A stretch of DNA of 64,000 nt from Escherichia coli (GTDB taxonomy: Bacteria; Pseudomonadota; Gammaproteobacteria; Enterobacterales; Enterobacteriaceae), in NCBI RefSeq assembly GCF_024223415.1, contig NZ_CP100500.1; one strand, 5' to 3'. The first letter of the stretch is position 1, and each line of letters begins with the position of its first letter. Below the pieces are notes generated by a model. It worked only from the letters and a program-made list of their open reading frames with translations. It made no database searches and was not told where the DNA came from. This document shows positions 55,794 through 63,695 of this stretch, one piece after another. Position numbers and translations under genes: made by a program.

Positions 55794-56786
55794 ATGGTGA
55801 AATCGACGTCATGTACAACCATTGATTTCATGAATATGTCGCAGCTAACTGAACGGACCTTTACGCCATCTGAATCTCTCAGCAGCCTGTCACTTTTTCT
55901 TAGTCTGGCACGTGGACAGTGTCGGCCGGGTAAATTCTGGCATCGCCGTAGTTTTCGCCAGAAATTTTTGCTGCGCTCGTTGATTATGCCGCGTTTAAGC
56001 GTTGAGTGGATGAACGAACTTTCCCACTGGCCTAATCTCAATGTGTTGTTAACGCGCCAGCCGCGACTGCCTGTACGTCTGCATCGCCCTTACCTTGCGG
56101 CGAATCTTAGCCGTAAGCAATTGCTGGAGGCGTTACGTTACCATTATGCGTTACTCCGCGGGTGTATGTCGGCGGAAGAATTCAGCTTATATTTGAATAC
56201 CCCCGGGCTGCAACTGGCGAAGCTGGAAGGCAAAAACGGCGAGCAGTTCACGCTTGAGCTGACCATGATGATCTCAATGGATAAAGAAGGTGACAGCACA
56301 ATCCTGTTCCGCAACAGCGAAGGTATTCCTCTGGCAGAAATCACGTTTACCCTGTGTGAATATCAGGGGAAAAGAACGATGTTTATTGGAGGACTGCAAG
56401 GCGCAAAATGGGAAATTCCACATCAGGAAATCCAGAATGCGACGAAAGCCTGCCACGGGCTATTTCCCAAACGCCTCGTGATGGAAGCGGCCTGTCTGTT
56501 TGCCCAACGTTTGCAGGTAGAGCAGATTATTGCCGTCAGCAATGAAACGCATATTTACCGCAGCCTGCGTTATCGCGATAAAGAAGGCAAGATCCATGCC
56601 GATTACAACGCTTTCTGGGAATCGGTTGGCGGCGTATGTGATGCTGAACGCCATTACCGCCTTCCAGCACAGATAGCACGAAAAGAGATTGCCGAAATCG
56701 CCAGTAAAAAACGGGCTGAATACCGTCGGCGCTATGAGATGCTCGACGCTATTCAGCCACAAATGGCCACGATGTTTCGCGGTTAA
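55794..56786 (+). CDS. ybjX: VirK/YbjX-family protein (DUF535)
   Basis: Position between macA and ybjD as in E. coli; 330 aa. Confidence 0.75.
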   Translation: MVKSTSCTTIDFMNMSQLTERTFTPSESLSSLSLFLSLARGQCRPGKFWHRRSFRQKFLLRSLIMPRLSVEWMNELSHWPNLNVLLTRQPRLPVRLHRPYLAANLSRKQLLEALRYHYALLRGCMSAEEFSLYLNTPGLQLAKLEGKNGEQFTLELTMMISMDKEGDSTILFRNSEGIPLAEITFTLCEYQGKRTMFIGGLQGAKWEIPHQEIQNATKACHGLFPKRLVMEAACLFAQRLQVEQIIAVSNETHIYRSLRYRDKEGKIHADYNAFWESVGGVCDAERHYRLPAQIARKEIAEIASKKRAEYRRRYEMLDAIQPQMATMFRG

Positions 56787-58441
56787 TCCGCGCGACCGCG
56801 CGCCAGCCACAGCACGCGTGAGAACATTTTTTTCAGCAGCGTCGGTACGGAGTCCACACCACGACGTCCGGCCTCCATTGCCACTTCAATGGCAAGATCG
56901 GGTTTGGAAGAGCGATGGATCGCTTTCGAGATAATTTTGCGCAGATTCATCGGGACATTTTCCGGGATTTGCGCCACGCGGTGGAACACATCGGAAAATC
57001 CCTGGCGATACATAAAATGTTCCATATCCAGCGCCGGTAACGCCGTTAAATGTTCTCGTTCGGCTTCCCGATCATTATTCAACAGGCTGCGTACCGTAGC
57101 GGCATATTTCTTCCCTGCTTCATCGCCATCGACCAGTACATGCCATTCAATCCCCATTCGGCGGGCAAATTTAACCAGTGGCTTTAGCCCGGACTGGGCA
57201 AACTCAATGACCTTGATCCCTTCGGCATCAAAATGATGTCCGCACTGACGCGCCAGTTCATTGATAACCCAGGTTTCCGTTTCCCCTTCCACCAGCAACC
57301 AGCAGCGAGCAAACAGCGATGACGGACGATTAAAACGAATGTGAAAAGAGATGCGGCGGCTGTCTTCGGTGCTCAAGCCACTTGGCCCCAGACGCCAGGC
57401 GGCAACACGAGAAGATTCACGCACCAGGCGGCAAACATGTTCCACTGGAGTTAACGAAAGCAGCTCGCCAGAGTTGGTGGTAGCAATACGTTGTAAAGGC
57501 AAAAGATTCAACAGATGCCAGGCAACTGAAAGCATAATGGGGTGTAAACGCGTTTCTGGATCTTCGATCAGCAACAATGGACGGGCGTCTTTATCCAGTC
57601 GCAATGTGCCTTTTGCCTGCAATAAAGTAGCAAACAGGCCGAGCAAAATAACCCGATACGAGCGCCCTCCAGGTCGGTCAATCATCCGGTTGATGATGTC
57701 CAGATAGCGCCAGCTTCGTTGCTCATTGCTGGCCCGCCGCCGCATTAAACGATATCGCGCCTGTCCAGCCCCCTGCTCAGAGAAATAATGCTCAAGCAAC
57801 TGCACCATTGCGGAAAGTCCCTGACGAATCTGTCCATCAGAGAGATTTTGCGGATGTGAGGACAACTCACGGGCGAGGAAATCGAGCTGGCGCGCGGTGA
57901 CTTCCACATTGGGGACATTTGGCACCGTGCCGTTACGAATACGGCGCATAAAACGGGCATCACGCAAGCGCAGCACCGGCATTAAACGCACCAGATGGCG
58001 TGCCTGATCGTTAATATCCTCAACATCAATCGGATGTCCGTCTTTATCGAGAAAACTGCGCAGTGTCATCACGCTGCCGTCTTCCGCACTCTCCCCTTCC
58101 AGACGATAAAAAATACGGTGATAGCCATCGGTGCATGGCGTCCAGCACGCTTCCAGCGGCCGATAACGGCGAACCCGATGTCGGCCTGGCAGCGATTCGC
58201 GGAAGGTCAAAATAATATGCAGATGATGTTCTCGCCCGTTGATATCTCCCGGCGGGAACCAGAAATCGTCGCGCTCAAAATGGTAGAGATCTGATTCTGG
58301 CGATAGCAGCAGGGTTAAGGCGTCCAACAAGCTGGATTTACCCCACGCGTTCTCCCCAATCAGGACGTTGTTTTGTTCCAGCATCAACGACAAACGGTTG
58401 ATACCGCGAAAACCCACAATTTCAACGCGCTCAAGAATCAT
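56783..58441 (-). CDS. ybjD: OLD-family ATP-dependent endonuclease YbjD
   Basis: N-terminal ABC-type ATPase (GENAWGKSSLLDAL) with C-terminal Toprim-like region; matches YbjD. Confidence 0.9.
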   Translation of the reverse strand: MILERVEIVGFRGINRLSLMLEQNNVLIGENAWGKSSLLDALTLLLSPESDLYHFERDDFWFPPGDINGREHHLHIILTFRESLPGRHRVRRYRPLEACWTPCTDGYHRIFYRLEGESAEDGSVMTLRSFLDKDGHPIDVEDINDQARHLVRLMPVLRLRDARFMRRIRNGTVPNVPNVEVTARQLDFLARELSSHPQNLSDGQIRQGLSAMVQLLEHYFSEQGAGQARYRLMRRRASNEQRSWRYLDIINRMIDRPGGRSYRVILLGLFATLLQAKGTLRLDKDARPLLLIEDPETRLHPIMLSVAWHLLNLLPLQRIATTNSGELLSLTPVEHVCRLVRESSRVAAWRLGPSGLSTEDSRRISFHIRFNRPSSLFARCWLLVEGETETWVINELARQCGHHFDAEGIKVIEFAQSGLKPLVKFARRMGIEWHVLVDGDEAGKKYAATVRSLLNNDREAEREHLTALPALDMEHFMYRQGFSDVFHRVAQIPENVPMNLRKIISKAIHRSSKPDLAIEVAMEAGRRGVDSVPTLLKKMFSRVLWLARGRAD

Positions 58442-58866
58442 ATCCCCTCCAGAAATATGTGACTTATCCTTTACGCTGGCAGTATAACGGGAAAGGCCTT
58501 GCTAATACGTGATGACATCACATTTAAGCATGGCAAATGTCTGAAAAATGAGCGAATAATCGCGTTATACTCCCTCTTGCTGATAAGTCTGCAAAAACAA
58601 CAAAATCAAATAATTAGCATGATAAATTATTTTTTATTACGCCTAAAGGATTAAATCTTTTGCTTGCACTACACTGTCAATCAGACAAATGACTATATGG
58701 GGCAACCCGCTGTTGCCCTAAATCAAATTTACTGGATTTATTTATCTGGTGAATGACTCGCCTTCGTTTTTAAAATAGCCGCGCATTATTTCCGTCGTCA
58801 CTTTTTTACGACGACCCTATAAAACGACCATATTTTTCACAGGGTCAATTTTTAATTGAGGTGGAT

Positions 58867-59562
58867 ATGTTCAGAAAATTAGCAGCTGAATGTTTTGGTA
58901 CTTTCTGGCTTGTTTTTGGTGGCTGTGGTAGTGCTGTACTGGCCGCAGGCTTCCCGGAATTAGGCATTGGTTTTGCCGGCGTGGCGCTGGCATTCGGTTT
59001 GACCGTTCTGACGATGGCCTTTGCTGTTGGTCATATTTCTGGTGGTCATTTTAACCCGGCGGTCACTATTGGTTTATGGGCTGGCGGACGTTTTCCGGCA
59101 AAAGAAGTCGTTGGCTACGTAATTGCCCAGGTTGTCGGCGGTATTGTTGCAGCGGCGCTGCTGTATTTAATTGCCAGTGGTAAAACGGGTTTTGACGCGG
59201 CAGCCAGCGGTTTTGCTTCTAACGGTTATGGCGAGCATTCACCAGGCGGTTATTCCATGCTTTCCGCGCTGGTAGTTGAACTGGTATTGAGTGCAGGTTT
59301 CCTGTTGGTGATCCACGGCGCAACCGACAAATTCGCTCCGGCAGGTTTTGCGCCGATCGCTATTGGTCTGGCCTTAACCCTGATTCACTTAATCAGTATT
59401 CCGGTGACTAACACTTCTGTTAACCCGGCGCGCAGCACCGCGGTTGCCATCTTCCAGGGCGGCTGGGCATTAGAACAACTGTGGTTCTTCTGGGTGGTGC
59501 CAATTGTCGGCGGCATTATCGGTGGTCTGATTTACCGGACCCTGCTGGAAAAACGTAATTAA
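58867..59562 (+). CDS. aqpZ: Aquaporin Z
   Basis: Two NPA motifs ([14 protein letters not shown]); matches AqpZ. Confidence 0.95.
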
Positions 59563-60019
59563 TTAGCATTGGCATTTTATCTGCCCTGGTTGTTTTATCT
59601 TCGACGTTACAAACCGCACGGGTGTTGGTGGCGTCAAAATCGCTGAAGCGTTCCCCGAAGGCCGGGGCAGCCCACATGGATGTGGGCTGAGGGCGCGTCT
59701 TACAGGACGTTACCTCGCGCCCGACCCGGTAGCAGAAGGGGATAAGCTGAAGGTACCGCGCAGCGGCGATTTTTTTCGCCAGAGCCCGGGGGGGCAGGGG
59801 GCGGCGGCGACTGGCCGCCCCCTGCGCGCTCCCTGCGCCAGTGGCTTTATATGGCATTGCACATGAAAGGAGCGCAACAATGCTAAACACTCATATAGAA
59901 TTAAAAATCCCCCTCTGATGCATAACATTTCCTTTTAATTGCAACTTTACTCGTCCTTCCGCTTTCAGTAGTGTGACATCGCGCATTTCGACTTCTTTCT
60001 TTGCAAGGGCTGGGTTTTC

Positions 60020-60919
60020 ATGTTTTCTGGGCTGTTAATCATTCTGGTTCCCCTGATTGTGGGTTACCTCATTCCGCTTCGCCAAAAAGCTGCATTAAGA
60101 GTTATTAATCAGCTATTAAGCTGGATGGTTTACCTTATTCTCTTTTTTATGGGTATCAGTCTGGCGTTTCTCGATAACCTCGCCAGTAACCTGTTGGCGA
60201 TTCTGCATTATTCTGCCGTCAGTATTACCGTTATTTTACTGTGTAATATTGCCGCCCTTATGTGGCTGGAGCGCGGTCTGCCGTGGCGCAACCACCATCA
60301 GCAAGAAAAACTCCCGTCGCGTATTGCGATGGCGCTTGAGTCGCTAAAACTGTGCGGCGTAGTAGTGATTGGTTTTGCCATTGGCCTGAGTGGACTGGCT
60401 TTCTTACAACACGCGACCGAAGCCAGTGAATACACCTTAATTCTGCTACTTTTCCTCGTCGGTATTCAGTTGCGCAATAATGGCATGACCTTAAAGCAGA
60501 TTGTCCTTAATCGCCGGGGAATGATTGTCGCCGTGGTGGTGGTTGCCAGTTCATTAATTGGTGGTTTAATTAACGCCTTTATTCTTGATCTACCCATCAA
60601 TACCGCGCTGGCAATGGCCTCTGGTTTCGGCTGGTATTCTCTTTCCGGTATTTTATTGACCGAATCTTTTGGTCCGGTAATCGGGAGCGCGGCGTTTTTT
60701 AATGATCTGGCCCGTGAGCTGATTGCAATTATGTTGATCCCTGGGCTGATTCGCCGCAGCCGCTCTACCGCACTGGGCTTATGCGGTGCGACGTCGATGG
60801 ATTTCACCCTGCCCGTTCTTCAACGTACTGGCGGGCTGGATATGGTCCCGGCGGCAATTGTTCACGGTTTTATTCTTAGCCTGTTAGTGCCGATCCTCAT
60901 GGCCTTTTTCTCTGCGTAA
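60020..60919 (+). CDS. lysO: Lysine exporter LysO (YbjE)
   Basis: 299-aa polytopic membrane protein in the conserved aqpZ-ybjE-hcp position. Confidence 0.85.
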   Translation: MFSGLLIILVPLIVGYLIPLRQKAALRVINQLLSWMVYLILFFMGISLAFLDNLASNLLAILHYSAVSITVILLCNIAALMWLERGLPWRNHHQQEKLPSRIAMALESLKLCGVVVIGFAIGLSGLAFLQHATEASEYTLILLLFLVGIQLRNNGMTLKQIVLNRRGMIVAVVVVASSLIGGLINAFILDLPINTALAMASGFGWYSLSGILLTESFGPVIGSAAFFNDLARELIAIMLIPGLIRRSRSTALGLCGATSMDFTLPVLQRTGGLDMVPAAIVHGFILSLLVPILMAFFSA

Positions 60920-61062
60920 TACCTCTCTGGCGGTAGATCCCTGCCGCCAAAATTGCGCTAAATCAATCTCCCTTAAAGTTGCATGAAAAATCCCTTTTAT
61001 CCCCGCGTTAAGCGTCTTAACCTTAAACATGTATATTAAATATAACTTTAAAAGGTGTGATC

Positions 61063-62715
61063 ATGTTTTGTGTGCAATGTGAACAAACTATCCGTACTCC
61101 GGCAGGAAACGGCTGCTCATACGCGCAGGGGATGTGTGGTAAAACGGCGGAAACCTCTGACCTTCAGGATTTACTCATCGCGGCGCTGCAAGGGCTTTCT
61201 GCCTGGGCGGTAAAAGCGCGTGAATACGGCATCATCAACCACGATGTCGACAGCTTCGCGCCACGCGCCTTTTTCTCAACCCTGACCAACGTTAACTTCG
61301 ATTCTCCGCGTATTGTCGGCTACGCTCGTGAAGCGATTGCCTTGCGCGAGGCGCTGAAAGCACAATGCCTGGCTGTAGATGCCAACGCCCGCGTCGATAA
61401 CCCGATGGCTGACCTGCAACTGGTGAGCGACGATCTCGGCGAACTGCAACGTCAGGCAGCAGAATTTACCCCTAACAAAGATAAAGCGGCGATTGGCGAA
61501 AACATTCTCGGCCTGCGTCTGCTGTGCCTGTATGGCCTGAAAGGTGCGGCGGCCTATATGGAACACGCACACGTTCTCGGTCAATACGACAACGATATTT
61601 ATGCCCAGTATCATAAAATCATGGCGTGGCTGGGGACCTGGCCTGCCGATATGAACGCGCTTCTTGAGTGTTCAATGGAAATCGGCCAGATGAACTTCAA
61701 AGTGATGAGCATTCTGGATGCAGGCGAAACCGGTAAATACGGTCACCCGACGCCAACCCAGGTCAACGTCAAAGCGACGGCGGGTAAATGCATCCTGATT
61801 TCCGGTCACGATCTCAAAGATCTCTACAACCTGCTGGAACAGACCGAAGGCACGGGCGTTAATGTCTACACCCACGGCGAAATGCTGCCTGCGCATGGCT
61901 ACCCGGAGCTGCGTAAATTCAAGCATCTGGTCGGTAACTACGGCAGCGGCTGGCAGAATCAGCAAGTGGAGTTCGCTCGTTTCCCTGGCCCCATCGTGAT
62001 GACCTCGAACTGCATCATCGACCCAACCGTAGGCGCTTATGACGATCGTATCTGGACCCGCAGCATCGTTGGCTGGCCTGGCGTGCGTCATCTGGATGGC
62101 GAAGATTTCTCTGAGGTCATCGCCCAGGCGCAACAAATGGCGGGCTTCCCGTACAGCGAAATTCCGCACCTGATCACCGTGGGCTTTGGCCGCCAGACGC
62201 TGCTTGGCGCAGCGGATACGCTGATTGATCTGGTGAGCCGTGAAAAACTGCGTCATATCTTCCTGCTTGGTGGCTGTGACGGCGCACGCGGCGAACGTCA
62301 CTACTTCACCGATTTCGCCACCAGCGTGCCGGATGACTGCCTGATCCTGACTCTCGCCTGTGGTAAATATCGCTTTAACAAACTTGAGTTTGGCGATATC
62401 GAAGGTCTGCCTCGTCTGGTGGATGCCGGTCAGTGTAACGATGCTTACTCAGCAATTATTCTGGCGGTTACGCTGGCAGAAAAACTGGGCTGCGGTGTCA
62501 ACGATCTGCCGCTGTCGCTGGTGCTCTCCTGGTTTGAACAGAAAGCGATTGTCATTCTGCTGACGCTGCTTTCTCTGGGCGTGAAAAATATCGTCACCGG
62601 CCCGACTGCACCTGGTTTCCTGACACCAGATCTGCTGGCGGTGCTGAACGAGAAATTCGGCCTGCGTTCTATCACCACTGTTGAAGAAGACATGAAGCAA
62701 CTGTTGAGCGCGTAA
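61063..62715 (+). CDS. hcp: Hybrid-cluster protein (hydroxylamine reductase) Hcp
   Basis: N-terminal Cys cluster MFCVQCEQT…[11 protein letters not shown]; matches Hcp. Confidence 0.95.
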
Positions 62716-62726
62716 GGAGTTAGCAG

Positions 62727-63695
62727 ATGACGATGCCAACGAATCAATGCCCGTGGCGGATGCAGGTTCATCACATTAAGCAAGAAACGCCGGATGTGTG
62801 GACGATTTCCCTGATTTGCCACGATTACTACCCATATCGCGCCGGGCAATATGCACTGGTCAGCGTGCGAAACTCAGCGGAAACGCTGCGTGCTTACACC
62901 ATTTCCTCCACGCCAGGAGTGAGTGAATATATCACCCTGACCGTGCGGCGGATTGATGACGGTGTAGGCTCCCAGTGGCTGACGCGCGATGTAAAACGCG
63001 GTGATTATCTCTGGCTTTCGGACGCGATGGGGGAATTTACCTGCGACGATAAAGCAGAAGATAAATTCCTGTTGCTGGCGGCAGGCTGCGGCGTCACGCC
63101 GATTATGTCGATGCGTCGCTGGCTGGCGAAGAACCGTCCACAGGCCGATGTACAGGTGATCTACAACGTGCGTACGCCGCAGGATGTTATTTTCGCCGAT
63201 GAGTGGCGTAACTATCCGGTAACGCTGGTGGCGGAAAATAACGTTACCGAAGGCTTTATCACTGGTCGTCTCACTCGCGAACTCCTGACTCGCGTTCCTG
63301 ACTTAGCTTCACGTACCGTGATGACCTGCGGCCCGGCTCCGTATATGGATTGGGTAGAGCAGGAAGTGAAAGCGCTCGGCGTGACGCGTTTCTTTAAAGA
63401 GAAATTCTTCACCCCAGTAGCGGAAGCGGCGACCAGCGGTCTGAAATTCACCAAACTGCAACCGGCGCAAGAATTTTACGCTCCGGTTGGCACCACGCTG
63501 CTGGAGGCGCTGGAAAGCAATAAAGTTCCGGTTGTCGCCGCCTGCCGCGCGGGTGTTTGCGGCTGCTGTAAGACGAAAGTGGTTTCCGGTGAATATACGG
63601 TGAGCAGTACAATGACGCTGACCGACGCCGAAATCGCTGAAGGTTACGTACTGGCCTGCTCCTGCCATCCGCAGGGGGATTTGGTTCTCGCATAA
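62727..63695 (+). CDS. hcr: NADH oxidoreductase Hcr (FAD/2Fe-2S partner of Hcp)
   Basis: Flavin reductase-like N-terminus and C-terminal 2Fe-2S motif CRAGVCGCC. Confidence 0.95.
   Translation: MTMPTNQCPWRMQVHHIKQETPDVWTISLICHDYYPYRAGQYALVSVRNSAETLRAYTISSTPGVSEYITLTVRRIDDGVGSQWLTRDVKRGDYLWLSDAMGEFTCDDKAEDKFLLLAAGCGVTPIMSMRRWLAKNRPQADVQVIYNVRTPQDVIFADEWRNYPVTLVAENNVTEGFITGRLTRELLTRVPDLASRTVMTCGPAPYMDWVEQEVKALGVTRFFKEKFFTPVAEAATSGLKFTKLQPAQEFYAPVGTTLLEALESNKVPVVAACRAGVCGCCKTKVVSGEYTVSSTMTLTDAEIAEGYVLACSCHPQGDLVLA

Follow-up and report, generated by a model that had tools for sequence, protein, structure and literature searches.

NsrR is a [4Fe-4S]-containing, nitric-oxide-sensing repressor of the Rrf2 family. 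Other operators of this family (those of IscR type 1 and type 2, RsrR and RirA) are AT-rich, promoter-overlapping inverted repeats bound by an Fe-S winged-helix homodimer, but the recognition sequences and signals of these other regulators differ from those of the NsrR site at hcp. The closest described system, the NsrR operator of hcp-hcr (nipAB) in E. coli and Salmonella, was predicted by Rodionov et al. 2005 (PMC1274295), who derived the motif gATGyAT-N5-ATrCATc by starting with this same operator, a conserved element that lies upstream of enterobacterial hcp and downstream of a conserved FNR-like box (alignment in their Fig. S1). The site was also found positive by ChIP-seq by Mehta et al. 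2015 (PMC5320621), in whose Table 4 it ranks second only to ytfE among the 11-1-11 NsrR matches of the E. coli CFT073 genome, with a PatSer ln(P) of -23.87 against a cut-off of -14.28. In the same strain hcp was up 43.7-fold with nitrate (PMC5320621), and the authors cite Partridge et al. 2009 for hcp (ybjW) as an NsrR ChIP-chip target in K-12 as well. In Salmonella, mutation of nsrR raised hcp mRNA 284-fold, the operator there being the same 23-mer as that described below. A Phcp::lacZ fusion is used to report cytoplasmic NO in an NsrR-dependent manner (PMC9052748). Both the occupancy of this sequence by NsrR and the NsrR- and NO-dependent expression of hcp are thus shown in the literature. 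The ytfE operator AAGATGCATTTAAAATGCATCTT, which is the best NsrR site in E. coli, shares its 11-1-11 architecture and its repressor with the hcp site, and the two genes are co-regulated. Compared with ytfE, the half-sites at hcp (AACATGTATAT / AAGTTATATTT) show greater degeneracy and a higher AT content, and the hcp promoter additionally needs FNR far upstream, at -72.5.

The window (i.e., the whole stretch of DNA analysed, 64,000 nt in length) is E. coli chromosome, as indicated by the 401 nt around the 23-mer of interest, which were matched at 95-100% identity, with the annotation lysO followed by hcp, in 5424 of 5426 complete E. coli genomes. The genes and signals that surround the 23-mer were as follows.

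58861-59562: aqpZ, upstream of hcp
60020-60919: lysO/ybjE, upstream of hcp
61026-61048, unstranded: NsrR operator, 11-1-11 inverted repeat AACATGTATAT-T-AAATATAACTT with its dyad centre at 61037 (almost certain, from published identity, a matrix score of 25.0 bits, ChIP-seq in CFT073 and conservation)
61052-61056, + strand: Shine-Dalgarno-like AAGGT, 6 nt before the hcp ATG (read from the sequence; conserved)
61063-62715, + strand: hcp, hybrid cluster protein / hydroxylamine (NO) reductase (816 bits to NF003658, cut-off 367)
62727-63695, + strand: hcr, NADH oxidoreductase partner of Hcp, co-transcribed with hcp (NF007964, 640 bits)

The downstream gene had been named as hcp in the initial annotation, and this assignment was borne out by the family score given above and by the name hcp carried by the gene at this locus in the 5424 E. 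coli genomes. A mechanical open reading frame call placed the start of hcp at GTG 61057, which is 6 nt upstream of the conserved ATG at 61063; the latter is the start in the RefSeq annotation and in all orthologues and gives the N-terminus MFCVQCEQT... With this ATG, the 23-mer at 61026-61048, which on direct reading has the letters first reported for it (AACATGTATATTAAATATAACTT), lies 15-37 nt 5' of the gene, exactly as had been stated.

Farther upstream, a 552-aa open reading frame on the - strand (window 56783-58441) adjoins aqpZ, in the position of E. coli ybjD. Similarity of its product to ATPases of the AAA/OLD type from anti-phage systems (MADS3, PtuA, RecF-like) is confined to the first 45 or so residues and is in every case far under the family cut-offs.

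Identity of the 23-mer with the published site was established letter by letter. Mehta et al. 2015 (PMC5320621) give the hcp site in their Table 4 as AAGTTATATTTAATATACATGTT, which is the 23-mer in reverse complement, and the same 23 bases appear in the E. coli and Salmonella rows of Fig. S1 of Rodionov et al. 2005 (PMC1274295). The aligned CFT073 region contains an identical 23-mer, and its coordinate 967958, the published left end of the site, corresponds to window position 61048. By the same alignment the NsrR ChIP-seq summit at CFT073 967971 falls on window position 61035, 2 bp from the dyad centre, at a resolution too coarse to part 61026-61048 from an NsrR-like element 50 nt upstream. 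The summit was published as -22 from hcp (PMC5320621), a figure that fits GTG 61057, apparently the start used in the old CFT073 annotation, and not the ATG, from which the distance would be -28. With respect to locus, bases and position relative to hcp and the FNR box, the window site and the hcp-hcr (nipAB) operator of E. coli and Salmonella do not differ. The 23-mer is therefore an operator that was already known, i.e., the described hcp-hcr NsrR site itself in another E. coli genome, and its presence in the window adds no new knowledge of NsrR or of hcp regulation. The initial annotation, made from the sequence alone, had correctly picked out a genuine and experimentally supported operator when it proposed an NsrR-type site for hcp, and we regard 61026-61048 as almost certainly the primary NsrR operator of the hcp-hcr promoter.

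Comparison with NsrR binding matrices had been suggested as a check of this proposal, and the result was clear. A symmetrised log-odds matrix was built from 25 distinct sites of the 11-1-11 form tabulated by Mehta et al. 2015 (Table 4, PMC5320621), with hcp and one of two duplicate sites left out of the training set. The 23-mer AACATGTATATTAAATATAACTT scored 25.0 bits with this matrix and was the top match in the 64-kb window, the next match scoring 17.5 bits; a slight circularity remains in these scores in that the training sites were picked with a matrix that at first included hcp. Scores of the training sites themselves ranged from 11.8 to 31.4 bits, and 23 of the 25 were lower than that of the hcp 23-mer. 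A score of 25.0 bits was reached at none of 12.8 million positions of first-order Markov sequence. By hand count, 17 of the 23 bases of the hcp site agree with AAGATGCATTTAAAATGCATCTT, the consensus of the matrix.

A weaker match to the same matrix, 15.1 bits for ACATTTCCTTTTAATTGCAACTT at window 59925-59947, was noted upstream of lysO in the aqpZ-lysO intergenic region. Since the null maximum for this matrix per 64 kb had a mean of 14.0 and a standard deviation of 2.3, this element is within the range of chance and is probably not an NsrR site.

In contrast with the matrix score, the symmetry of the 23-mer carries little weight. The partial palindrome that had been described is present, with complementary bases at 7 of 11 positions in the 11-1-11 register, but it is weak: at the local base composition (87% A+T) symmetry of this degree has P = 0.08, it was seen in 4.9% of the AT-rich (at least 80% AT) 23-mers of the window, and the repeat finder favoured a register offset by 1 nt from 11-1-11. 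Palindromy was rejected as evidence on these grounds, symmetry of the 23-mer alone being no more than expected by chance, and it is the weakest part of the original case for an operator. A 7-nt inverted repeat with arms at 61025-61031 and 61062-61068 was considered separately as an mRNA hairpin that might sequester the ATG and was rejected because its left arm is 5' of the transcription start.

The promoter in which the 23-mer is embedded has the following elements, for which the centres at -72.5 and -104.5 were calculated from the transcription start in Fig. S1 of Rodionov et al. (PMC1274295).

60920-60935, unstranded: NarL/NarP-like 7-2-7 element TACCTCT-CT-GGCGGTA, centred at -104.5 (read from the sequence; 85% conserved)
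60953-60966, unstranded: FNR box TTGCGCTAAATCAA, centred at -72.5, the sole FNR-like match in the intergenic region (99% conserved, present in all 78 species)
60976-60998, unstranded: NsrR-like 23-mer AAGTTGCATGAAAAATCCCTTTT (-56 to -34), 17.5 bits, second best in the window
61018-61023, + strand: probable -10 hexamer TAACCT (-14 to -9), assigned from its distance to the published start (92% conserved)
61032, + strand: hcp transcription start (+1), experimentally mapped, AAACATG*T*ATATT (Fig. S1 of Rodionov et al. 2005, PMC1274295)

The box at 60953-60966 was highlighted as an FNR site in Fig. S1 and the text of Rodionov et al. 2005 (PMC1274295), who also gave candidate NarP sites in this region. 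The first heptamer of the NarL/NarP-like element agrees with TACYYMT at 7 of 7 positions and the second at 5 of 7. Chismon et al. 2010 are said to have placed FNR at -72.5 and NarL/NarP at -104.5, in agreement with the positions calculated here. The counterpart of the -10 hexamer in Erwinia/Yersinia is TATGCT. A scan of 60800-61200 for consensus sigma-70 promoters and terminators found nothing; the promoter has no recognisable -35 region, and the scan result fits a weak, activator-dependent promoter and is otherwise uninformative.

A GC-rich 9-nt inverted repeat (TGGCGGTAG / CTGCCGCCA, window 60928-60949) was noted directly 3' of the lysO stop codon, overlapping the 7-2-7 element of the NarL/NarP type. 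Across Enterobacteriaceae the arms show about 90-100% conservation and the 4-nt loop only 10-20%; the repeat lacks a T-run and is therefore not a canonical terminator.

These positions bear on the possibility, FNR having been named beside NsrR in the initial annotation, that the dyad is an FNR (CRP/FNR-family) site for anaerobic control of hcp. The gene is indeed FNR-dependent, but the 23-mer contains no match to TTGAT-N4-ATCAA with up to 2 mismatches, the only such match in the intergenic region being the separate, 99% conserved and previously published box at 60953-60966, and activation would not be possible from a site centred at +6. The FNR reading of the 23-mer, the probability of which we consider negligible, was rejected in favour of an FNR box distinct from the NsrR operator.

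Given the published start at 61032, the NsrR operator spans -6 to +17 and is centred at +6, and a mechanism of repression may be proposed on this basis. In this scheme a dimer of holo-[4Fe-4S] NsrR would bind the 11-1-11 inverted repeat at 61026-61048 and, because the repeat extends from -6 to +17, would mask the start point of transcription together with the -10 region at its downstream edge. RNA polymerase would be excluded, or trapped without forming a productive complex, despite anaerobic activation from FNR (-72.5) and NarL/NarP (about -104.5); this occlusion step is the most likely one from the position of the operator. Anaerobic activation of hcp would be supplied by FNR bound at -72.5. 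Nitrosylation of the NsrR cluster by NO would then cause NsrR to leave the DNA, and its release would allow Hcp-Hcr, a high-affinity NO reductase, to be made.

Conservation of the operator was evident from comparison of hcp loci from 80 species-level Enterobacteriaceae genomes, 78 of which had at least 150 nt of upstream sequence. The NsrR site was present in all 78 of these other species with scores of 21.8-28.2 bits, and in 77 of them it was the best matrix match of the upstream 200 nt; the exception was Trabulsiella, in which the upstream element was the top match and the operator scored 22.1 bits. The match of the 23-mer to the NsrR matrix and its conservation across species are both far beyond chance. 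Measured from the start of the FNR box, the site began at a distance of 73 nt in 76 of 79 sequences and of 72 nt in the remaining 3, whereas its distance to the ATG ranged from 13 to 24 nt across species. Fixed spacing from the FNR box together with a drifting distance to the ATG indicates that the site keeps phase with the promoter rather than with the coding sequence. In the 79 Enterobacteriaceae sequences, the identity to the window, averaged over columns, was 96% for the 23-mer, 99% for the FNR box and 41% for the spacer at 60999-61017.

The columns that varied within the 23-mer were mainly the central, unspecified ones, 61035 and 61037, plus 61032, where the T of the window is replaced in several species by C, which is nearer the half-site consensus GATGCAT. 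Within E. coli, 61018-61057 was identical in 5148 of 5424 genomes. Of two variants sampled, one carried C61028G, a change toward AAGATG, and the other carried T61032C, again toward the consensus, as well as T61037C, which affects the central base, and an altered -10 hexamer.

Part of this conservation could come from the transcription start and 5' UTR that lie in the region, and the 23-mer might in principle be conserved only for core-promoter or 5'-UTR function (i.e., start-site selection, the initial transcribed sequence or an AT-rich translation-initiation region), its likeness to NsrR sites being incidental. Such an explanation could draw on the presence within the 23-mer of the published transcription start and 17 nt of the 31-nt leader, on the conservation (86%) also of the Shine-Dalgarno region that flanks it and on the lack of significance of the dyad symmetry taken alone. 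It leaves unexplained, however, a 25-bit match to a matrix made from other NsrR targets, which was reached by only 5e-5 of simulated 143-nt sequences of AT-rich intergenic composition, as well as the position of the NsrR ChIP-seq summit near the dyad centre, the strong derepression of hcp in nsrR mutants and the shift of natural variants toward the NsrR consensus. Promoter and operator function are, moreover, compatible with each other, and a role confined to the former is very improbable.

Also to be considered was an AT-rich element bound mainly by some other protein (IHF, Fis, H-NS or an Rrf2 regulator such as IscR), with NsrR in a secondary role. The 87% A+T content of the 23-mer and the related binding modes of Rrf2 proteins would be in keeping with this, and hcp reportedly responds to further regulators such as OxyR. 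On the other hand, the conserved positions are exactly those of the NsrR half-sites, NsrR ChIP and nsrR-mutant data account for the regulation, and no result of the analysis indicates IHF, Fis, H-NS or IscR, an IscR-type motif being unnecessary to account for the data. We consider primary binding by another protein extremely unlikely.

In contrast with the operator, the NsrR-like element at 60976-60998 varied by lineage. Its left half reads AAGTTGCATTA in CFT073, a sequence listed among the 'possible NsrR sites' for hcp in Table 2 of Mehta et al. 2015 (PMC5320621). In 30 of the 79 sequences the element scored no lower than the weakest training site (11.8 bits); it was near consensus in Trabulsiella (25.8 bits), Entomohabitans (24.7 bits), several Kluyvera (22.9 bits) and Buttiauxella (22.1 bits), and was absent in Enterobacter and relatives. 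It is conceivable, if rather doubtful, that this element is a real auxiliary NsrR operator that blocks the alpha-CTD/FNR path and has been gained or lost between lineages, with species-specific differences in the tightness of NO control as a consequence. If so, NsrR bound at 60976-60998 would act between the FNR box at -72.5 and the core promoter. The conserved A-tract and CTTTT of the element could serve instead as an UP-like/-35 region, and the A-tract could just as well be a site for alpha-CTD of the UP-element kind.

An insertion was noted in the same part of the promoter in E. coli O169:H41 strain 2014EL-1345-2 (NZ_CP024223.1), in which an IS4-like IS421, with a 1113-nt transposase CDS and what appears to be a target duplication of about 10 nt, is inserted at window positions of approximately 60993-61002. 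The insertion separates the core promoter of hcp from the FNR box, which is shifted about 1.4 kb away, while the NsrR operator and the -10 hexamer are intact. From this arrangement, hcp of this strain may have lost FNR activation.
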